The position numbers were made by a program, and so were the translations under genes. A stretch of 64,000 nucleotides of DNA from Minisyncoccota bacterium (GTDB lineage Bacteria > Patescibacteriota > Minisyncoccia > Phycocordibacterales > PALSA-1337), in NCBI GenBank assembly GCA_041663145.1, contig JBAZRG010000002.1, forward strand, positions 22,384 to 86,383. The letters are read 5' to 3'. Shown in pieces: positions 301 through 60,585 of this stretch (position 1 is the stretch's first letter; every line of letters starts with the position of its first letter). The notes under the pieces are model-generated. The model saw only the letters and a program-made list of their open reading frames with translations, was not told where the DNA came from and did no database searches.

Positions 301-436
301 TATTAAGGTAGTTCTTTGATATGCCAGTTACGTTCACCATAACAGAAAGCGTCTCAAAACTGAGGCATTTTCCGTTGTGGTGAACTGTAGTAACCACACA
401 TCAACAAAACAACGTATACGAAAGGTAATAACGATT

Positions 437-1123
437 ATGAAATCGATTACACCTGGTCAGATGGAACAGTTTGCTCGTTTTGTGACAGATGCTTCCGGTC
501 CAAGCACGAAGACGGCTCTTGAGCAGCTTCGCGACGACTGGGAATTCAGTCATGAAGGTCTTCAGCGCGCGCTCGGAAAAGGTAATCAGCTCAAATCCCG
601 CCTTATTCCGCTTCTCAAGGCCATGATCAAGGAAATGGCGACTAATATCCAAGGATGCGTGAAGCGCATCCTTGATGGAGAAGAGATCGCCATCGCCAAA
701 ACGAGCGGAAAGGAAAATCTCGCCCATGCCAAGGACGTTTTCACCGGTTGGGTTGATCCCGACTTCGTGAATTACGGCTGTGATGTGGAAGGGGAGCCTA
801 CCGCTCCGACACCTGTAGAGGTGTTCGAGATGGTGGAAAACGGCGACTTCGCGCGGATATTCGGTGGTTTCAATGTCAGCCTCGATCAGCTGCGTCTTTC
901 ACAGCACCAGATCAAGGCTTTCGCAAGGGATCACCGTGATAAGCTCCGCACGGAAGGATACGGGACCTTCTTCCTGTTCAAGGTTGGCGAAGAGTTCTTC
1001 GTTGCGTACGTGCACTTCTACGGCGGCGGGCGGCTCCGGGTCTACGTGCACCGCTTCTCGGACGTCAACGTCTGGGGCGCCGAGCGCCGTCATCGCGTCG
1101 TGCTCCCGAAACTGAACCAGTAG
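437..1123 (+). CDS. DGR target protein; the C-terminal about 40 aa are encoded by the variable repeat
   Basis: ORF 377..1123; the likely true start is the ATG at 437 (MKSITPGQ), which has an upstream AAGG. The gene is GC-richer than its surroundings. Its 3' 119 bp is an adenine-mismatch copy of the downstream template repeat. The fold is not recognisable from sequence; DGR targets are usually C-type-lectin-like. Confidence 0.7.
   Translation: MKSITPGQMEQFARFVTDASGPSTKTALEQLRDDWEFSHEGLQRALGKGNQLKSRLIPLLKAMIKEMATNIQGCVKRILDGEEIAIAKTSGKENLAHAKDVFTGWVDPDFVNYGCDVEGEPTAPTPVEVFEMVENGDFARIFGGFNVSLDQLRLSQHQIKAFARDHRDKLRTEGYGTFFLFKVGEEFFVAYVHFYGGGRLRVYVHRFSDVNVWGAERRHRVVLPKLNQ
996..1114 (+). repeat. 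DGR variable repeat (VR)
   Basis: 119 nt aligned without gaps to 1482-1600. There are 18 mismatches, every one at a position where the TR has A (VR has T, C or G). There are no mismatches at TR C, G or T positions. Confidence 0.9.
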
Positions 1124-1481
1124 GTTCACCTACTGGGTGGCACTTGCAAATTAGCCTTGAGCCTTTGGCTCTCAGTCCCTCTGATCCTTGTCAAAATTTA
1201 TTTTGGCAAATCAGGGGGATTTTTTGATTGAGCACAATCACCTACTGGGTTATACTGGAATGGCACGCATGAACGTACGGTGGCTATGGCTCCTGTGCCA
1301 CGCTTGTGAAGAAATACGTTCGGGAGTTCTGCTGGATATGTCTTGCAGAAGAGTGGATGTATTATTATCTAAACAAAAAATAATCAGTTGGTGTAGCGAA
1401 CTGGAGGACTTCAAGGTCCCGAATACTATTCAATTTGTCCTGATTGGGCGGGTGGTGTACTGGATGGTCCGCTACACATTA

Positions 1482-1600
1482 TCTTCGTTGCGAACGTGAA
1501 CTTCAACGACGACGGGCAGCTCAAGGTCAACGTGAACCGCTTCTCGAACGACAACGTCTGGAACGCCGAGAACCGTCATCGCATCGTGATCCCGAAACTG
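1482..1600 (+). repeat. DGR template repeat (TR)
   Basis: Invariant partner of the VR. Read in the VR frame it is rich in AAC codons (aac ttc aac gac gac ... aac gtg aac ... aac gac aac ... aac gcc gag aac), the classic DGR design that allows diversification without stop codons. The six-frame ORF 1496..1765 is this TR read in frame and is not a gene. Confidence 0.9.
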
Positions 1601-1615
1601 CAATTTCTCTCATCA

Positions 1616-1984
1616 TTATTTGGTGAGAGTTTTGTTGAGTGTCGATTTAGCAGACGGACTTTGAAGGCCTTTGCGCCATCCACCAAGCATCCGTCCTATT
1701 TCTTCGAGCTTTTCCGAGAGTTCTGTATATTTGTCAGTCGGCATGAGCTTGCTCTCCCATGCTAGTTGATAAAAGAATTTAAGAGTATCTACCTTCGTTA
1801 TTGTTCGACCAAGCATTACCGTTTTGGTTTCTGGTGGTAGATATATGCAAGAAAAACTAAATTCCAAAGTATCTAAGAATAAATCCTCGATCTTTTGCCC
1901 GATGCCGAGTCGTTCGACCCTCGGAAAGTTCCTATGAATAGTTAACCAAAACTGATATGCTTCTTTTTCCTTTAAAATTACCAC
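1616..1984 (-). CDS. avd: DGR accessory variability determinant (Avd), a four-helix-bundle protein
   Basis: 122 aa. The C-terminal ...LSEKLEEIGRMLGGWRKGLQ matches the Avd-type EVGRILGSWI ending, and the N-terminal EAYQFWLTIHRNFPRVERLG matches the Avd/23S-IVS-protein helix 1. It lies between the TR and the RT, but on the opposite strand. Confidence 0.7.
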   Translation of the reverse strand: MVILKEKEAYQFWLTIHRNFPRVERLGIGQKIEDLFLDTLEFSFSCIYLPPETKTVMLGRTITKVDTLKFFYQLAWESKLMPTDKYTELSEKLEEIGRMLGGWRKGLQSPSAKSTLNKTLTK

Positions 1985-2024
1985 TGGAGAATTGCGGGGG
2001 GGGGGTCGTTATAGTCATTTTATT

Positions 2025-3021
2025 TATGAAAAATAATGGGGTTTCGTACAACCATATCATATCTCTTAAAAATATCCACGAAGCGTGGCGCGAATTTGTC
2101 TCGGGCAAAAAATACAAAAAAGATGTCGCTGAATTTCTGCTCAGACTTTCGGAGAATACATATAAACTCCACACTGATCTGAAAAATAAAATATATGTTC
2201 ATGGACCGTACGAAGCGTTTGCTGTTAATGATCCAAAACCGCGCAGCATCCATAAAGCAAGCGTGCGGGACCGCTTACTCCACCACGCCCTCTATCGACA
2301 ACTCTACCCGTACTTTGATCAGAAGTTTATTCATGATTCCTATTCTTGCCGTGATTTTAAGGGAACACATCGGGCATTGGACCGTTTTATGCAATTTGCC
2401 CGCAAGGTTTCGAAGAGCAATAAACGCACCTGCTGGGTGTTGAAATGTGACATACGCAAATTCTTTGCTTCAGTTGACCATTCAGTCCTCATGGCAATAC
2501 TTAAAAAGCATGTCTCTGATTCTGATATTATCCGCCTTGTTGGTGGGGTAGTGGAGAGTTTTAAAAGTACTGGTCCAGGAAAGGGATTGCCGCTCGGTAA
2601 TCTCACGTCACAACTCCTTGTAAATGTTTATATGAATGAGTTTGACCAATATGTAAAGCATGTCCTCAAACAGGAGTTCTATATCCGTTACGCTGATGAT
2701 TTTGTGATTATGCATCACGATCGCAAGGCTTTGCTCGAGGTATTGCCGAAGATTGAAACCTTTCTTGAATCAATTCTTAAACTACAGCTTCATCCTGATA
2801 AGGTTTCTATCGAGACAGTTTCATCCGGTGTTGATTTTCTTGGTTGGGTGCATTTTCCGACTCATCGTGTACTTAGGACAAAGACAAAGAAGAGAATGTT
2901 TACAAGAATTGAAGATTCACAAGGAAAGGAAGAAGTAGTATGTTCATATCTCGGTATGTTAAAGCATGGGAATTGCAAAAAATTGAAGTGCAGGGTCATG
3001 AAATTGACAATCACAATCTAA
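2025..3021 (+). CDS. DGR reverse transcriptase
   Basis: RT motifs are present: RSIHKASVRDRLLHHAL (motifs 1-2), the DGR-specific GLPLGNLTSQLLVNVYMNEFD (motif 4 I/LGNxxSQ), and YADD in YIRYADDFVIMH (motif 5). The size of about 330 aa is typical of a DGR RT. The start is taken at ATG 2025 (MKNNGVSYNHI...); the six-frame ORF extends upstream to 1957. Confidence 0.9.
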
Positions 3022-3030
3022 TTTATCGTA

Positions 3031-3185
3031 GGAGCTTGGTGAATATTGTGTATTTGCTCCTCGCAATGCGATTTGAACCCCGAACAAATTGCCCATATTA
3101 GAGTAGCTCCGTCTACTCTAATATGGTTGCAATTTGGAGTGGGTGACCTTGCGAGGAGCAAATACACAATATTCACCAAGCTCCT
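3031..3185. repeat. Element A copy 1: a 36-bp outer inverted repeat enclosing a conserved ~85-nt core with an internal 14-bp hairpin
   Basis: The arm 3031-3066 (ggagcttggtgaatattgtgtatttgctcctcgcaa) is the reverse complement of 3150-3185. The core tgcgatttgaaccccgaacaaattgcccatattagagtagctccgtctactctaatatggttgcaatttggagtgggtgacc is nearly identical to the core at 44100-44190. Confidence 0.7.
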
Positions 3186-3237: not shown

Positions 3238-4986
3238 ATGTTCGTCGAAGATGCCCAGCTCTATAAATTCATACTCGACTCCGGATTGGTGACAAAGGAG
3301 GAGCTTGAGGATGCAAAAAAAGAGAGTGAAAAAACTAATAAAAGACTTGGCGATATTTTGGTTAGTGCCGGCAAGATAAATGCCGACAATCTACGTCGCA
3401 TGCAAGCATATGTTCTCGGTATTCCTTTTGTCGATCTGAAAAACAAAAAGATCCCTTTTGAAACTCTGTCACAAATACCGGAACCGATCGCGAGAGGGCA
3501 CAATATCGTGGCTTTCAAAAAGACCGAGGTTTCTCTCGAGGTCGCCATGCTCGACGTCAACGATCTTTCGGCTATCGATTTTATAAAGAAAAAAGTAAAT
3601 CTCAAGATATTACCTCGTCTCACAGATACTGATTCGATCAAGGAGGTTCTCGTTCAATACCAAAAAAGCTTGAAGGCCGAGTTCGGAGATATCATCCAAA
3701 AAGAAACCGCGACGATGAATATGATCTCGGAAGAAAGCGGTGAAGCTATATCCGAAGCTGATTTGAAAAAGATCGCCGAAGATCTGCCGGTAGTTCGCAT
3801 TGTCGATACCTTGATTAAACATGCAATATTGCAAAATGCTTCAGATATCCATATAGAGCCGATGGAGGAACAGGTATTGGTGAGATATCGCATAGACGGC
3901 TTGTTGCACGATGCCATGGTCCTTCCAAAACAGGCAGGTCCTTCGGTCACTGCCCGTATAAAGGTCTTGTCGAATTTGAAACTTGATGAAAAACGTTTGC
4001 CACAAGACGGTCGTTTCAAAGTAGATATAAATAATGAGAAAGTTTCTTTTCGTGTATCGATATTGCCGACTTATTACGGGGAAAAGACCGTTATGCGTCT
4101 GTTACGAGAGAGCATTTCTGGTTTTACTCTAGAATATCTGACATTTCACGGTGAGAGTCTCGAACGTATTCACAAAGCACTTACAAAATCCACAGGCATG
4201 ATCCTCACAACCGGTCCTACTGGATCCGGAAAGACGACGACTCTATATACGATGCTCGACATATTGAACACTCCTGATGTAAATATTTCGACTATTGAAG
4301 ATCCTATCGAATATCAGATGGCTAGAATAAATCAGACTCAGGTCAAACCAGAGATCGGTTTCTCTTTTGCTCAAGGCATACGCACACTCGTTCGTCAGGA
4401 TCCGGATATTATCATGGTTGGTGAGATCCGAGACAATGAAACAGCCGCTTTGGCGGTGAATGCCGCTTTGACTGGCCACTTGGTTTTGTCGACACTCCAC
4501 ACAAATTCCGCCGCCGGTGCTATACCACGACTTTTGGATATGAAAGTAGAATCATTTTTGCTCGTATCTATACTAGACATCGTGATCGGTCAGCGACTGG
4601 TGCGCAGACTGACTGAAGCCAAATCACAATACAAATTGACCAAGGATGAACTGGCTGAGCTAGGTCGTCTGGTGGATTTGGAACGAGTCCTTGAAACTTT
4701 GAAGGCTGAAAAAATAGTAAAACCTAGCGATTCGTGGGAGAAGATATCTTTTTGGAAACCTGTACCGGGTGGAGATGATGATGGGTTCAAGGGTCGCATC
4801 GGTATTCACGAAGTATTGAAGATGACTCCTTCCATGAAGGATCTCATAATGAAAGATGCTAGTTCGGACGGTCTAGAAGCACAAGCTAGAAAAGAGGGAA
4901 TGTTGACCATGTTAGAAGATGGGATATTCAAATGCGTTCAAGGTTTGACGACTATTGAGGAAGTTCTTCGAGTTATTTCGGAATAA
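3238..4986 (+). CDS. pilB: Type IV pilus assembly / type II secretion ATPase (PilB/GspE family)
   Basis: 582 aa with Walker A GPTGSGKTTTLY. The GspE-family N-terminal domain and the C-terminal Zn-finger region are consistent with this family. Confidence 0.85.
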   Translation: MFVEDAQLYKFILDSGLVTKEELEDAKKESEKTNKRLGDILVSAGKINADNLRRMQAYVLGIPFVDLKNKKIPFETLSQIPEPIARGHNIVAFKKTEVSLEVAMLDVNDLSAIDFIKKKVNLKILPRLTDTDSIKEVLVQYQKSLKAEFGDIIQKETATMNMISEESGEAISEADLKKIAEDLPVVRIVDTLIKHAILQNASDIHIEPMEEQVLVRYRIDGLLHDAMVLPKQAGPSVTARIKVLSNLKLDEKRLPQDGRFKVDINNEKVSFRVSILPTYYGEKTVMRLLRESISGFTLEYLTFHGESLERIHKALTKSTGMILTTGPTGSGKTTTLYTMLDILNTPDVNISTIEDPIEYQMARINQTQVKPEIGFSFAQGIRTLVRQDPDIIMVGEIRDNETAALAVNAALTGHLVLSTLHTNSAAGAIPRLLDMKVESFLLVSILDIVIGQRLVRRLTEAKSQYKLTKDELAELGRLVDLERVLETLKAEKIVKPSDSWEKISFWKPVPGGDDDGFKGRIGIHEVLKMTPSMKDLIMKDASSDGLEAQARKEGMLTMLEDGIFKCVQGLTTIEEVLRVISE

Positions 4987-5020
4987 TATTTTTCTTTTTA
5001 AATAATCATTACACAACGTC

Positions 5021-6241
5021 ATGCCTCATTTCACTTTCAAAGCAAAAAGACCTTCGGGCGAGATTTATAGCTCGGAAAAAGACGTGAATGATCGATACGA
5101 ACTGTATAAATTGCTTCGTGAGACCGGTGATGAAGTCGTTGAATTTAAAGAAAAGAAATCAAGAGGGGGTATAAATATGGAAATATCATTGGGACGTATT
5201 ACGGACCATGTCAAAACTATTGAAAAGATAAACTTTGCCCGCAATCTAGGCTCGATGTTGCAGGCCGGACTTTCGCTATCCCGTGCTTTGCAGGTCTTGG
5301 AGCGACAGACTCGAAACAAAAAATTCAAAAAAATCTTGGCTCAATTGATCGACGAGATCGATAAAGGTACAACATTTTCTGACGCTTTAGCTAAACATCC
5401 ACGAGTATTTCCTCAATTATTCGTCTCTATGGTCAATTCGGGAGAACAATCTGGCACATTATCCGAATCACTCAGAGTTGTCGCAACTCAAATGGACAGC
5501 AGTTATTCACTAGAGAAGCGTGTCCGTGGTGCACTCATGTATCCGGCGGTCATTGTGACGGCTATGGTTGGCATTGCGATTTTGATGTTCATATTCGTAG
5601 TACCGACTTTGATGAAGACATTTACGGATCTCAATGTTGAATTGCCGTTTGCGACACGTCTGGTGCTCGGTATATCAAATATAATTCAAAATCAAGGTTT
5701 TTTGGTTCTGATCATAATACTTATTATCACATCCGGATTGTACTGGTGGACGCGAAAATCAACAGGTCAAAAAATATTGCACCGTATTTTGTTGAAGTTA
5801 CCGGTGATAGGCGAACTTGTTCAAGAGGTTAATACTGCCAGAACCGCTCGCACCATGTCATCACTGCTAACTTCTGGTGTCGATGTTGTAGAATCGGTAA
5901 CAATAACATCGGCTGTCGTCCAAAATGTTCATTTTCGAAGAGTATTGGTTGAAGTTGCTGAATCTATAAAGAAAGGTGAATCGATGTCCAAGGTTTTTTC
6001 GGAAAATATCAATCTTTACCCCGTATTCTTCTCTGAAATGATAAATGTTGGAGAAGAGACTGGAAAAACAGGGGAGATGCTCTTGGGAGTGGCACATTAT
6101 TACGAAGATGATGTATCCCAAAGAACCAAAGACATGTCTACCATCATTGAACCGATACTGATATTAATGATCGGAGCGGCTGTAGGAGTGTTCGCTCTGT
6201 CGATGATTCAGCCAATGTATTCATTGGTAAATGTTATCTGA
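5021..6241 (+). CDS. pilC: Type IV pilus inner-membrane platform protein (PilC/GspF family)
   Basis: 406 aa polytopic membrane protein with duplicated GspF-type domains. It lies directly downstream of pilB. Confidence 0.8.
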   Translation: MPHFTFKAKRPSGEIYSSEKDVNDRYELYKLLRETGDEVVEFKEKKSRGGINMEISLGRITDHVKTIEKINFARNLGSMLQAGLSLSRALQVLERQTRNKKFKKILAQLIDEIDKGTTFSDALAKHPRVFPQLFVSMVNSGEQSGTLSESLRVVATQMDSSYSLEKRVRGALMYPAVIVTAMVGIAILMFIFVVPTLMKTFTDLNVELPFATRLVLGISNIIQNQGFLVLIIILIITSGLYWWTRKSTGQKILHRILLKLPVIGELVQEVNTARTARTMSSLLTSGVDVVESVTITSAVVQNVHFRRVLVEVAESIKKGESMSKVFSENINLYPVFFSEMINVGEETGKTGEMLLGVAHYYEDDVSQRTKDMSTIIEPILILMIGAAVGVFALSMIQPMYSLVNVI

Positions 6242-13944: not shown

Positions 13945-14673
13945 ATGAATCCAGCTTCAAACATCACTATATTTACCGATGGATCCTCACGTGGCAATCC
14001 TGGTCCTGGGGGATGGGGTGCCATTATCGTAGATAAAAAAGAAGATCAAAATAAATCTCACATTCGAGAGATTGGAGGCTCGGAGAAAAATACGACGAAT
14101 AATAGAATGGAATTAACTGCAGTTTTACGTGCCATTGGAAGTACGGCAAATGAAACAGTCAGTACAGTTTATACAGATTCCTCGTATGTCATAAATGGAA
14201 TAACCAAGTGGATCCATGGCTGGAAAAGAAATGGTTGGCAGACAAAAGCCAAAGAAGATGTCCTGAATAAAGATCTATGGGAAGAATTGGATAGAAATAT
14301 AAATAATAAAAAAATATCTTGGAAATATGTCGGGGGACATGTCGGTATTGCTGGAAATGAACGTTGTGATCTAATAGCGACCGGTTTCGCCGATGGTATC
14401 AAAGTCGATCTGTATGACGGCCCTTTGACTGGATATAAGGATAAAAATATTCTGAATATATCACTCGATCATACTAAAGCCACAGATAAAAAATCCAAGT
14501 CCAATCGTTCCAAAGCCAAAGCTTATTCATATATAAGTAGCATAAACGGTAAGATTGAAATCCATAAAAGTTGGCCGGAATGTGAAAAGAGAGTTAAGGG
14601 TGCAAGAGGAGCTAGATATAAAAAGGCATTGAGTCCACTAGAGGAGGCTGAAATTGTTGATGAATTTAAATAA
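13945..14673 (+). CDS. rnhA: Ribonuclease HI with a C-terminal basic extension
   Basis: Motifs TDGSSRGNPGPGGWGAII, NNRMELTAV and YTDSSYVINGITKWIHGWKRNGW are present. Confidence 0.85.
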   Translation: MNPASNITIFTDGSSRGNPGPGGWGAIIVDKKEDQNKSHIREIGGSEKNTTNNRMELTAVLRAIGSTANETVSTVYTDSSYVINGITKWIHGWKRNGWQTKAKEDVLNKDLWEELDRNINNKKISWKYVGGHVGIAGNERCDLIATGFADGIKVDLYDGPLTGYKDKNILNISLDHTKATDKKSKSNRSKAKAYSYISSINGKIEIHKSWPECEKRVKGARGARYKKALSPLEEAEIVDEFK

Positions 14674-14782
14674 CCAAAGAACCTCCCAGAAATAACTTCC
14701 CTCCCGTCTCCTGCGGGCGCTAATCGCTGGCTACCCATCCTCGGAGCACGGGAGGGAAGTTATTTCTGGGAGGTTCTTTGGT
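14672..14782. repeat. Element B copy 1: a 36-bp perfect inverted repeat enclosing a conserved 39-nt loop (cctgcgggcgct...atcctcgg)
   Basis: The arm 14672-14707 (aaccaaagaacctcccagaaataacttccctcccgt) is the reverse complement of 14747-14782. It overlaps the rnhA stop codon. Confidence 0.75.
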
Positions 14783-14836
14783 TAATTTAGACTTTCTTAA
14801 TCAGGATTTTAAGTTCCGCTTCTATAATGAACTCTC

Positions 14837-28361: not shown

Positions 28362-28372
28362 TAGAACCGTAA

Positions 28373-28472
28373 ACCCCACGCGACATAACAACATCCCTCC
28401 GTACACCTGCGGGCGCTTACGCTAAGCACAATCCTCGGTGTACGGAGGGATGTTGTTATGTCGCGTGGGGTT
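28373..28472. repeat. Element B copy 2: a 34-bp perfect inverted repeat enclosing a conserved loop (cctgcgggcgcttacgctaagcacaatcctcgg)
   Basis: 28373-28406 is the reverse complement of 28439-28472. The loop shares cctgcgggcgct and atcctcgg with copy 1. It lies immediately after the fusA stop. Confidence 0.75.
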
Positions 28473-43819: not shown

Positions 43820-43858
43820 ATTCGCTCTGATTTGAATAGATTTATAACGTAACCCCCC

Positions 43859-44007
43859 TTGCATCCTCGTTTTTCATCCTCGAACTCTACTCACAATATA
43901 CCAACATTTTCACAAAGGATGCGTTACAAGGATTCGCGCATCCTTTGGAAAATGTATTGGTATATTGTTTCGCAGATTATTCTCGGAAGAAAAACGAGGA
44001 TGCAAGG
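43859..44007. repeat. Nested palindromic structure: an 18-bp perfect outer inverted repeat enclosing a ~70-nt imperfect hairpin
   Basis: cttgcatcctcgtttttc at 43859-43876 is the reverse complement of 43990-44007. The inner acaatataccaacattttcacaaaggatgcg pairs with cgcatcctttggaaaatgtattggtatattgt. Confidence 0.6.
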
Positions 44008-44068
44008 AGTGTTACGTAAAATCTTCATATTCACGTCCATGACTACTTTTGTAAAATTTCAGCTCCTC

Positions 44069-44220
44069 GAGCTCGGTGAATATTGTTCGGAAACGACTCG
44101 CAATGCGATTTGAACCCCGAACAAATTGCCCATATCTGAGTAGTTCCATCTACTCAAATATGGATGCAATTTGGAGTGGGTGACCTTGCGTGTCGTTTCC
44201 GAACAATGTTCACCGAGCTC
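44069..44220. repeat. Element A copy 2 (outer 35-bp inverted repeat plus conserved core)
   Basis: gagctcggtgaatattgttcggaaacgactcgcaa (44069-44103) is the reverse complement of 44186-44220. The core at 44104-44185 matches the 3067-3149 core at most positions. The variable stem segment differs from copy 1 but stays self-complementary. Confidence 0.75.
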
Positions 44221-54398: not shown

Positions 54399-55007
54399 AT
54401 GAATTCTCACCCAAAGTACGAGCGTACATTAGTAGTCATCAAACCCGACGGTATCCAGAGATCCCTGATCGGTGAAATTGTGAAGAGGTATGAAAGGGTA
54501 GGGTTGAAGTTGGTTGCGATAAAAATGATGGTACCTTCGGCGGACCTGATCGAGAAACACTATACTTTGGATCCTGAATGGCGCATAAAGACCGGATTGA
54601 AGACTATCAAGGGCTATACTGACAAGGGGCAAGTTCCTCCATATACGGATCCTCTAAAGATCACGGCTATTATCTTGAAAAATCTGATCAACTACATGAC
54701 CAAGGGTCCTGTGATCGCTATGGTCTGGCAAGGGGCGCATGCAGTGGAGCTGGTACGTAAGATCACGGGTGGAACAGAGCCTCTGACGTCACTGATGGGA
54801 ACTATTAGGGGTGATTTTGTGATCGATTCATATAGAATGTCTGATGTGGATGGCAGAGCAGTTCGCAATCTAGTGCATGCTTCGGGGTCTGTTAAGGAGG
54901 CAAATGATGAGATCGCCCACTGGTTCAAAAAGGAAGAAGTATTCAACTACAATGCAGTTGTGGAGCAGATGCTCTATGATGTGGATCTTGATGGGATTTT
55001 GGAGTAA
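54399..55007 (+). CDS. ndk: Nucleoside diphosphate kinase (long form)
   Basis: ERTLVVIKPDGIQRSLIGEIVKRYERVGLKLVAIKMM and the active-site His region are present. 202 aa. Confidence 0.85.
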   Translation: MNSHPKYERTLVVIKPDGIQRSLIGEIVKRYERVGLKLVAIKMMVPSADLIEKHYTLDPEWRIKTGLKTIKGYTDKGQVPPYTDPLKITAIILKNLINYMTKGPVIAMVWQGAHAVELVRKITGGTEPLTSLMGTIRGDFVIDSYRMSDVDGRAVRNLVHASGSVKEANDEIAHWFKKEEVFNYNAVVEQMLYDVDLDGILE

Positions 55008-55042
55008 GGCGGCACCATAGTCCTCTAAAAACGATCGTGCGT

Positions 55043-55216
55043 AATCGCTTTTGAATAACAGGCACTAACAGAATGTTCCCAGAACAATCCGAGTATGCGA
55101 TTGAGCTTCGAAAAATTACCCGTGTTTGGTGAAGCCCTGGAACCAAACACGGTTGTAATTTGAGAAGCGATTACGCAGGATTGTGGCGGGAACATTCTGT
55201 TAGTGCCTGTTATGAT
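55043..55216. repeat. Complex interleaved inverted-repeat structure downstream of ndk (pseudoknot-like or alternative stems)
   Basis: Pair A: cgtgcgtaatcgcttt (55043-55058) with gaagcgattacgcagg (55165-55180). Pair B: tgaataacaggcactaacagaatgttccc (~55060-55090) with gggaacattctgttagtgcctgttatga (~55188-55216). There is an inner hairpin cgtgtttggt...ccaaacacgg. Confidence 0.55.
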
Positions 55217-55587
55217 TTAATCACGTATTCGGATTGTTTCCGAAGTATTGTGGTACTGCCTTACCCAAATTTAATCCTAAGATTTCATTACAACTTGCAG
55301 TAATTACTGAATAATGTCGCAACTACTTTTTCCTCTTGCGCTTCGAGATGAGAGTAATACAATTAAGACAGATTGCGAGAGTAAAATCCTACAAAATTTT
55401 TATTTTTGGAATGTCGACGAACAGGTAGAGCTGTTCAATTTCTTCCGCGATCTTTATGACGTTGGAAGCTAGATAACCCACCTGGAACACCAGGTATATT
55501 ACTCTCGCGATCTATGAAGCGCATCCCGATCTATACAGATACGGGGTGCTTTTCTATATTATCCATTATCACGTATAATTGAACACA

Positions 55588-55962
55588 ATGAGATATCTTT
55601 TTGGATTCACACTGATCGCAATTGTTATGGCTTTTCAGTTTTCTGACGCACACAAGGAATTTGTATTGATTCCAGGATATGGAATTTTTCTGCATATCCT
55701 AGGAGGTATGGGAGTCGCGTTACTGGCTAGTGCCGTTTTGCGTTTTTGGCGTCTGAGTTTGTTGAAAAAGAATATTATTGTACTCATTCTGACTTTGGTG
55801 GCAGGTCTCGCCTGGGAATATTGGGAGATTTATTTTGGACTTACAGGCCGTGTACTTTGGAGCTCAGCTTATTTTATTGATACTTTAAAAGATCTGGCAG
55901 TCGATCTTATAGGTGGAATAGCGGCACTATTTTTTACCATAAAAAATGACAAATTATCCTAA
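55588..55962 (+). CDS. Small polytopic membrane protein of unknown function
   Basis: About 124 aa with 4 predicted TM helices. The start is taken at ATG 55588. Confidence 0.4.
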   Translation: MRYLFGFTLIAIVMAFQFSDAHKEFVLIPGYGIFLHILGGMGVALLASAVLRFWRLSLLKKNIIVLILTLVAGLAWEYWEIYFGLTGRVLWSSAYFIDTLKDLAVDLIGGIAALFFTIKNDKLS

Positions 55963-60195: not shown

Positions 60196-60557
60196 GGGGA
60201 TGATCGGCATAGACAGTCTATGGTCTCCGTTCGTGCGGCGTGAGCACCGTTAACTCATAAATCTGACGGAAACTCTAAATGCTAAATCAACCGTTTCTCC
60301 GTATTTCGGAGCAAAGGACTTTAGTTTCGCTCTTGCTTAAAGAGCGCGTTCACCTCAGGGTATCCTAACCTGAGAATGGGCGTCATTATCTGGATGTAGG
60401 GCAGTGAAGTTTCTCGCTTCATTGTCTGAAATCATGAGATCGTGAATACGTGTTTTGTCTTCTTTCGAGCGTATTCATTAAACTTCAAAGAATTCTACCG
60501 CCGTAGAATCGTTCGGTTGATCTTGATTGCACCTGGGTTCGATTCCCAGCATCTCCA
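60196..60557 (+). ncRNA. ssrA: tmRNA (SsrA); the 3' CCA is not encoded
   Basis: The 5' GGGGAUGAUCGGCAUAGAC pairs with the 3' CAUCUCC plus the discriminator A. The T-arm is CUGGGUUCGAUUCCCAG (60531-60549). The internal tag reading frame is ...GCA AAG GAC TTT AGT TTC GCT CTT GCT TAA, giving ...AKDFSFALA*. It is adjacent to smpB. Confidence 0.8.
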
Positions 60558-60585
60558 CAAAAATAAGAAGCGTAGCGACTATATT

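Follow-up and report, generated by a model that had tools for sequence, protein, structure and literature searches.

What kind of structure occupies the gap that follows ndk, the nucleoside-diphosphate kinase gene, in the genome of a Minisyncoccota bacterium (assembly GCA_041663145.1, contig JBAZRG010000002.1)? The question arose in a stretch of 64,000 nucleotides (nt) of this contig, which we call the window and number from its first letter, where two pairs of long complementary segments succeed each other in the interleaved order A-B-A'-B' around an inner hairpin. An earlier note on this DNA had offered two explanations for such an arrangement, namely, a regulatory RNA forming a pseudoknot or mutually exclusive stems, or a structured mobile element. 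We consider it probable that the sequence at 55008–55267, called E6 here, is a lineage-specific palindromic or "foldback" DNA insertion of 260 nt, set exactly between the stop of ndk and the ancestral spacer and resembling an orphan miniature inverted-repeat transposable element (MITE) or repetitive extragenic palindrome (REP). Of the two explanations, the structured mobile element was therefore the better one and is approximately right in kind, although this sequence, of which one copy is known, is only a putative mobile element, while the RNA switch or pseudoknot was not borne out.

A nested rod built from four related units

The complementarity is observed directly and lies far beyond chance. 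Both long pairs and the inner hairpin are present close to where the earlier note had placed them, and its span of 55043–55216 is correct as far as it goes, but the structure reaches further, from 55008 to 55260. Arms B and B' (55055–55090 with 55178–55213) are 92% complementary over 36 nt and contain a perfect core of 26 base pairs (bp) at 55055–55080 and 55188–55213; arms A and A' (55031–55055 with 55160–55184) are 84% complementary over 25 nt, with 13 of 14 positions matching in their core (55037–55050 with 55165–55178); and the inner hairpin (55120–55130 with 55142–55152) is a perfect stem of 11 bp closed by a loop of 11 nt. There is also an additional crossed pair, 55060–55102 with 55219–55261, which is 72% complementary, as well as a direct repeat, given that 55178–55208 recurs at 55231–55261 with 71% identity. 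The 26-mer, searched with up to three mismatches, was found in just these two places in the 64 kb, where shuffled sequences lead one to expect none.

When positions 55008–55300 were folded and compared with 200 dinucleotide shuffles, the plus strand gave a single nested rod hairpin of about 255 nt, from 55008 to 55260, with 93 base pairs and a minimum free energy (MFE) of -121.2 kcal/mol (z = -10.5), and none of the 200 shuffles folded equally well. The minus strand folds with practically the same stability, at -117.5 kcal/mol and z = -10.4. We had considered an asymmetry between G-U and A-C oppositions as a possible sign of selection on a plus-strand RNA, and this idea was dropped, given that the best fold of each strand contains six G-U pairs, without any strand bias. 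As both strands fold alike and neither is favored in its G-U pairs, the symmetry belongs to the DNA and not to one of its transcripts.

The rod is made of four related units of about 53 nt each, with a mean column identity of 69%, two of them (Ra and Rb) to the left of the central hairpin and the other two (F1 and F2) inverted to its right (Table 1). Their heads match in nested order, with 31 of 34 positions identical between Rb and F1 and 23 of 34 between Ra and F2. Among the tails, it is the crossed combination of Ra with F1 that agrees (17 of 20 positions), every other pair of tails sharing at most 12 of 20. The order A-B-A'-B' thus arises because the type-1 tail is shared in crossed order and the heads in nested order, and the second crossed pairing reflects the overall similarity of the tandem units. 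In other words, the interleaving is a by-product of the repeated mosaic make-up of the insert and not a functional alternative structure. Tandem Repeats Finder reported no match in the insert because the units have diverged too far.

Table 1. Window coordinates of the insert E6, its units, its neighbors, and the other features described in the text
Feature	Position	Strand	Basis or remark
Whole palindromic insert E6, about 260 nt	55008–55267	.	MFE on both strands; missing in relatives; right boundary from alignment with the L005 spacer
Unit Ra, head (type b); outermost stem with F2 head; its initial 4 nt, GTAA, belong to native ndk	55004–55036	+	unit alignment, helix list
Unit Ra, tail (type 1), arm A	55037–55056	+	tail identities, inverted repeat
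Unit Rb, head (type a), arm B, holds the 26-bp core	55057–55090	+	inverted repeat, head identities
Unit Rb, tail (type 2), paired only in part within the rod (4 + 5 bp with F1 tail)	55091–55110	+	helix list; 12/20 identical to F2 tail
Central hairpin at the rod tip, stem of 7 + 11 bp, 11-nt loop at 55131–55141	55113–55161	.	11-bp perfect inverted repeat, helix list
Unit F1 (inverted), tail (type 1), arm A'	55158–55177	-	inverted repeat, tail identities
Unit F1 (inverted), head (type a), arm B'	55178–55211	-	inverted repeat, head identities
Unit F2 (inverted), tail (type 2)	55211–55230	-	direct repeat F1/F2 71%, module identities
Unit F2 (inverted), head (type b), closes the rod with Ra head	55231–55264	-	helix list, module identities
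ndk (nucleoside-diphosphate kinase, 202 aa)	54399–55007	+	Pfam NDK on identical product
Ancestral spacer with promoter-like TTGCGC-16 nt-TACAAT (about 55339–55366), outside the insert	55268–55367	+	alignable with the spacer of L005
Conserved unannotated structured small RNA with intrinsic terminator (about 55535–55555), outside the insert	55368–55555	+	nhmmer, consensus fold, covariance model
Rod E1	3030–3185		37 bp perfect
Rod E2	14668–14787		40 bp, 98%
Rod E3	28372–28472		36 bp perfect
Rod E4	43847–44017		
Rod E5	44069–44220		
Retroelement target gene (248 aa)	377–1123		variable repeat 996–1114 at gene end
Avd-like open reading frame (103 aa)	1188–1499		
Template repeat	1482–1600		
Reverse transcriptase	1957–3021		Pfam RVT_1, E = 2e-26

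Absence from relatives and rods elsewhere in the clade

The gene that precedes the insert is indeed ndk, as the earlier note had said, and its product, MFA6315199.1, identified by the Pfam NDK family, has 7839 homologues, the top one with 88% identity. It is the last gene of a secY-adk-map-ndk operon, and a TATAAT lies 9 nt ahead of its own ATG. On the other side of the gap come a DUF2238 gene, whose locus tag is WC648_02415, and then a beta-CASP metallo-beta-lactamase gene. The gap itself had been taken as 360 nt of non-coding DNA; the unannotated sequence between ndk and the next protein gene in fact measures 580 nt (55008–55587), and a conserved small-RNA gene, which had been overlooked and to which we return below, lies about 358 nt from the stop of ndk.

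In relatives whose ndk is 70–88% identical, the gene order is conserved as ndk, gap, DUF2238, beta-CASP metallo-beta-lactamase, and rplT/rpmI/infC. A comparison of homologous intergenic sequences in relatives had been suggested by the earlier note. Nothing similar to the insert was found in more than 80 related syntenic loci, more than 40 of them distinct, so that the sequence lacks conservation, a lack that the earlier note had itself named as speaking against its reading. The spacer from the ndk stop to the small RNA takes only 5–13 nt in 16 of 41 distinct syntenic relatives and at most 190 nt in 38 of the 41, and no other non-coding spacer is as large as the 358 nt of the window or as densely folded (-0.367 kcal/mol per nt). 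The closest relative having a spacer, L005 (ndk 88% identical), has one of 96 nt that aligns end to end with window positions 55268–55367, and the difference, 262 nt, is about the length of the rod. On the left side, the GGAGTAA at the 3' end of ndk, which adjoins the insert, is native, being common to relatives L011 and L019. Together with the alignment of the L005 spacer, this defines a clean insertion of 260 nt at 55008–55267, straight after the ndk stop.

Wider searches gave no relatives of the insert either. Degenerate patterns of the units, run against 596 Gb of species-representative genomes, produced two single chance matches only (a Desulfobacterium and a Methylobacter); a degenerate pattern covering all four units had no match in Joint Genome Institute (JGI) metagenomes or viral contigs; blastn against phages and plasmids returned nothing for the insert; and no open reading frame (ORF) within it is on record as a called gene. 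In Rfam, no family was found for the insert, either in the whole window at the gathering threshold or in 54700–55900 at E values up to 10.

What does recur is the site. At the same place after ndk, L008 carries an unrelated palindrome of 190 nt, whose arms likewise contain tandem sub-repeats and whose inverted repeats interleave, and the junction of ndk and the small RNA has taken up inserts more than once. The palindromic element that L008–L010 carry after ndk (4625–4813 in L008), unrelated to E6, has terminal GTCATTCCCGCGAAAGCGGGAATCC hairpins.

Rods of this kind are also found elsewhere in the same genome and clade. The window contains five further long intergenic hairpins, E1 to E5, all of which begin either 0–30 nt past a plus-strand gene or next to another rod, with near-perfect arms of 35–40 bp and folding energies from -80 to -105 kcal/mol. 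Two pairs among them are related in sequence, E1 and E5 having in common a core of 94 nt with 94% identity, and E2 and E3 one of 73 nt with 78% identity. We counted 30 rods of at least 90 nt in 415 kb of the clade, the relatives holding about 23 beyond those of the window, and one family, L008_4625/L019_910 (L019 910–1007), occupies differing loci in different genomes, which is evidence that some rods of the clade are dispersed. E6 accordingly belongs with these rod-like palindromes, an intergenic class frequent in this Paceibacterota clade. When ten relatives were compared with Rfam at E values up to 1, just spurious matches of plant microRNA-precursor models to long hairpins were obtained; two such hairpins, L023 1855–2067 and L019 4796–4908, score below the gathering threshold with these models through their rod shape. 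A literature search on such palindromes in Patescibacteria gave nothing specific.

What the insert is and how it may have arisen

Taken as a lineage-specific palindromic insertion, E6 shares many features with MITEs and with the Correia/NEMIS, ERIC, RUP, and BOX elements, as it is short (about 260 nt), non-coding, bounded by terminal inverted repeats, and folded into a long stem-loop. The terminal inverted repeats that characterize MITEs correspond here to the outermost stem, 55008–55042 with 55223–55260. As with MITEs and other intergenic palindromes, it occupies an intergenic or 3' site that would be transcribed, is present or absent according to lineage, and is accompanied by several such elements in the genome, and, like BOX, it is modular, with its internal modules repeated. 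It differs from all of these in being known from a single copy, in forming a 255-nt rod that is longer than most, and in having arms made of tandem duplicates with one module crossed. The likeness to REPs and bacterial interspersed mosaic elements (BIMEs) consists of a mosaic of repeated units in alternating orientation placed after a stop codon, with stable stem-loops at the 3' end of an operon. REP units measure 20–40 nt, are individually palindromic, number tens to hundreds of copies, and are accompanied by a RAYT transposase, whereas the units of E6 have about 53 nt, are not strong palindromes individually, and occupy one locus. Eukaryotic foldback (FB) transposons provide another parallel, their long inverted arms being likewise built of tandem sub-repeats that allow several pairing registers, but they are kilobase-scale, multi-copy elements of eukaryotes, and the parallel implies neither homology nor a shared mechanism.

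Three other kinds of repeat-bearing systems were considered for E6 and rejected. An array of the TIGR (tandem interspaced guide RNA) type was raised by a literature match; such arrays lie beside Nop-domain proteins and carry their spacers in loops (PMC12045711). At E6, there is neither a Tas gene nor an array of tandem direct repeats, and stems are not where TIGR spacers occur. A retron msr-msd came to mind because a reverse transcriptase lies beside rod E1, but this enzyme (1957–3021), the only one in the window, is 52 kb away from the insert and belongs to a diversity-generating retroelement. A CRISPR array was discarded in view of the neighbors of the insert, which are ndk, DUF2238, and the beta-CASP metallo-beta-lactamase.

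As to mechanism, the insert would have arrived as a non-autonomous element or through a template switch during replication, and it would be transcribed as the 3' tail of the secY-adk-map-ndk operon, where the role of the rod would not go beyond that of a passive stem at the 3' end. Judging from REP/BIME and Correia elements, a stem of this sort could hold up 3' exonucleases, cause transcription to pause or terminate, or be a substrate for a double-strand-specific RNase, and E6 may therefore afford a REP/BIME-like protection of the 3' end or attenuation of transcription. Any such function must be dispensable, given that the relatives do without the insert. A terminator scan found none at the rod, which is followed by CCTTACCCAAATTT, the central hairpin being followed by TTGTAATTTGAG on the plus strand; without a U-run, the rod is not a canonical intrinsic terminator.

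Several facts weigh against this interpretation of E6 as a MITE- or REP-like insertion. Mobility is the core property of MITEs and REPs, while a single copy of E6 is known, with one in the 64-kb window and none in the collections, a provisional count that covers 64 kb of the source genome. There is no clear target-site duplication, the best candidate being a TA (TA|AGGCGG...CTGCCT|TA) that equally extends the inverted repeat, and no cognate transposase was found, although no systematic search for a transposase or RAYT-type gene was made. A simple inverted duplication cannot account for the crossed type-1 tail, and the perfect 26-bp core within diverged arms could mean selection or conversion from arm to arm instead of neutrality. 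Finally, any role of the insert at the level of RNA is one that we only infer, and its central 65 nt (55102–55166) are backed by the source assembly alone and not by Logan contigs.

Some of these same facts suit an origin in place, by which E6 would never have been mobile, and this is the strongest of the alternatives, although we regard it as unlikely. According to it, a local segment of about 53 nt was first duplicated in tandem, replication template switching or foldback priming then added an inverted duplicate, and conversion between arms or units then yielded the perfect 26-bp core and the crossed tail. The single copy in everything searched and the want of a convincing target-site duplication agree with this course of events, and a perfect core amid diverged arms is what hairpin-templated correction would leave behind. 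Moreover, the inverted repeat extends 4 nt into native sequence, the GTAA of the ndk end pairing with TTAC at 55261–55264, and in rod E2 the arm likewise takes in a native gene end, with the final codons and stop of the upstream gene. What speaks for an insertion instead is that no precursor of the 53-nt unit was found in the spacers of relatives, that E6 is cleanly bounded by the stop codon on one side and by an intact ancestral spacer on the other, as an insertion would be, and that other rods of the clade form dispersed families at unrelated loci.

A more distant alternative, to which we give little credence, is that the rods of the clade, E6 included, are a clade-wide class of elements forming long double-stranded RNA and kept up by arm-to-arm copying or by selection. 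It is hinted at by the perfect 26-bp core of E6 within diverged arms and by compensated blocks in E1 and E5. In these two rods, whose stems are otherwise nearly identical, a block of 10 bp (approximately 3050–3059 with 3156–3165 in E1, and 44087–44096 with 44193–44202 in E5) is wholly different, GTATTTGCTC in one and TCGGAAACGA in the other, and in each copy the difference is exactly compensated on the opposite arm. If this alternative were true, the rods could give rise to small RNAs whose "payload" segments vary, or, in genomes whose intergenic spacers are very short, they could serve as signals dedicated to processing or to termination.

The regulatory RNA of the earlier note, whose interleaved stems would form a pseudoknot or two mutually exclusive switching structures, is very improbable. 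The interleaved complementarity is genuine and non-random, and the type-1 tail truly matches in crossed order, but the nested rod (-120.8 kcal/mol) is far more stable than a fold in which the A:A' pairing is forced (-96.3 kcal/mol) or one with the Rb:F2 pairing forced (-91.8 kcal/mol). Enforcing A:A' thus costs +24.5 kcal/mol and the other crossed pairing +29 kcal/mol, and with a cost of 24–29 kcal/mol, the alternative structures are not balanced. The loops of H-type pseudoknots need enough length to cross the grooves of both stems. At E6, arm A abuts arm B and A' overlaps B', which leaves crossing loops of 0 nt over helices of 36 bp and 25 bp, and from the known geometry of such pseudoknots, a simultaneous one would be sterically impossible. 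A sequence that is kept in no relative offers no possibility of covariation, and, as already described, the two strands fold equally well and no Rfam match appeared. The insert lies 3' of a stop codon and upstream of an independent, conserved promoter, that of the small RNA, and is not a 5' leader. The L008 palindrome, unrelated to E6, gives an identical interleaved signature merely through the tandem repeats of its arms, and the interleaving is, thus, generic for palindromes with repeated arms. In comparison with riboswitches, RNA thermometers, and H-type pseudoknots, E6 shares with them the sole trait of competing complementary segments, and it differs in lacking a conserved aptamer, covariation, a location in a 5' leader, and structures of comparable energy.

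The assembly bears on two further alternatives. Two independently assembled Logan contigs (SRR18595301), L001 and L002, are 100% identical to the window; the first joins the left arm to ndk and ends at 55101, and the second starts at 55167 and joins the right arm to the downstream genes. We had considered this symmetric break as a sign of an inversion or deletion variant, an idea that was dropped upon finding a break near the center of rod E4 as well, which indicates that such breaks are systematic at rod centers and are not evidence for a switch at E6. GCGATT repeats stand at 55097 and 55167, and a deletion between them would remove 66–70 bp. Specifically, Logan contig L096 ends at window position 43906, about 20 nt before the loop of E4. 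The breaks fall 20–35 nt from the centers of E6 and E4, although no perfect arm at these rods reaches k = 31. They are probably a coverage or graph effect at strong hairpins, and the rods may fragment the assemblies of this clade systematically.

An invertible DNA switch, in which a recombinase would flip 55081–55187, so that the central hairpin would terminate more or less strongly between ndk and the gene of the small RNA, deserves no more belief than the regulatory RNA. The perfect 26-bp inverted repeats do flank a segment of 107 bp, on the minus strand TAATTTTTC comes after the central hairpin, against only TTGTAATTTGAG on the plus strand, and the stop and restart of the Logan contigs are symmetric about the center. 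These breaks are not specific to E6, however, and do not coincide with the 26-bp repeats; a promoter-like site is absent from 55081–55187 on either strand, no recombinase was found among the 20 window proteins scanned, and the insert is missing in relatives. Least credible of all is an artifact of assembly or amplification, such as a chimeric inverted duplication, for although palindromes are a known class of artifact and the central 65 nt fall outside the independent Logan contigs, the arms are imperfect and mosaic instead of a clean inverted copy, each is joined to a different unique flank in two independent contigs identical to the window, and comparable rods occur in many other assemblies of the clade.

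A conserved small RNA and other features of the window

Beyond the insert, the ancestral spacer leads to an unannotated small RNA that, in contrast to E6, is conserved. A promoter-like motif, TTGCxx-16/17-TAAAAT/TACAAT, is present in the gaps of the inspected sequences, namely, the window, L005, L008, and L014. With nhmmer, the small RNA was found at 49 loci in addition to the window, always on the plus strand and downstream of ndk, and a covariance model placed it at 44 plus-strand places in 83 sources, again always downstream of ndk. It measures about 190 nt and ends in a hairpin followed by a T-run. Its fold consists of a closing stem of 13 bp, a conserved single strand of 24 nt (AAAAUCCUACAAAAU...), and an inner stem with two hairpins; on its 3' side, a conserved hairpin, ACCUG-loop-CAGGU, precedes the terminator. 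In the model-fitted alignment, with four minus-strand rows included, 96.8% of the cells are paired and 34 of 39 pairs have changed on both sides, while controls in which the 3' partner was slid by 1–3 columns gave about 40% paired and 8–16 pairs. No Rfam family was found for it in 54700–55900 at E values up to 10 or in ten relatives at E values up to 1.

A conserved TATAAT lies 6–8 nt before the ATG of DUF2238 in the window (55560–55590) and in L005, L008, and L014, the three syntenic relatives read as far as the start codon, with no Shine-Dalgarno sequence visible, and this arrangement suggests that the DUF2238 transcript is leaderless. If so, the small RNA looks like a free-standing gene and not like a leader. 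A TATAAT also appears soon after the small-RNA terminator in four more relatives, in which the start codons were not located. The closing stem, the large bubble with a 3' hairpin, and the inner stem recall 6S RNA, and by this analogy the small RNA might be 6S-like. In L011, two ORFs of 115 and 187 aa, with no Pfam match on record, lie between ndk and the small RNA (4070–5200), and the small RNA remains beside DUF2238 despite them.

At the other end of the window, positions 377–3021 contain the diversity-generating retroelement already mentioned, in which all 18 of the 18 mismatches between the variable and template repeats fall on template adenines, and a short hairpin, CAGTAGG-TTCA-CCTACTG, lies 3' of the variable repeat. 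L008–L010 also have an RVT_1 gene, near adk. A transfer-messenger RNA (tmRNA) gene is located at 60196–60560 on the plus strand (Rfam, 108 bits; tag peptide AKSTVSPYFGAKDFSFALA) and was the sole match of the tRNA/tmRNA scan.

In summary, the analysis removes a false lead, that of a riboswitch or pseudoknot, and the finding itself matters little. For scans made from sequence only, it is a caution that tandem sub-repeats within the arms of a palindrome mimic the topology of a pseudoknot. For the small-genome Paceibacterota, whose genes are otherwise tightly spaced, it points to about one rod of at least 90 nt per 10–14 kb, with rapid turnover, and these rods bear on assembly, given that contigs break there, and possibly on the 3' ends of transcripts. 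The junction of ndk and the small RNA tolerates large inserts, and the same gap holds a small RNA with strong covariation support that follows ndk clade-wide and stands outside Rfam. The more interesting leads are, therefore, this small RNA and the clade-wide rods with the compensated 10-bp block of E1 and E5.

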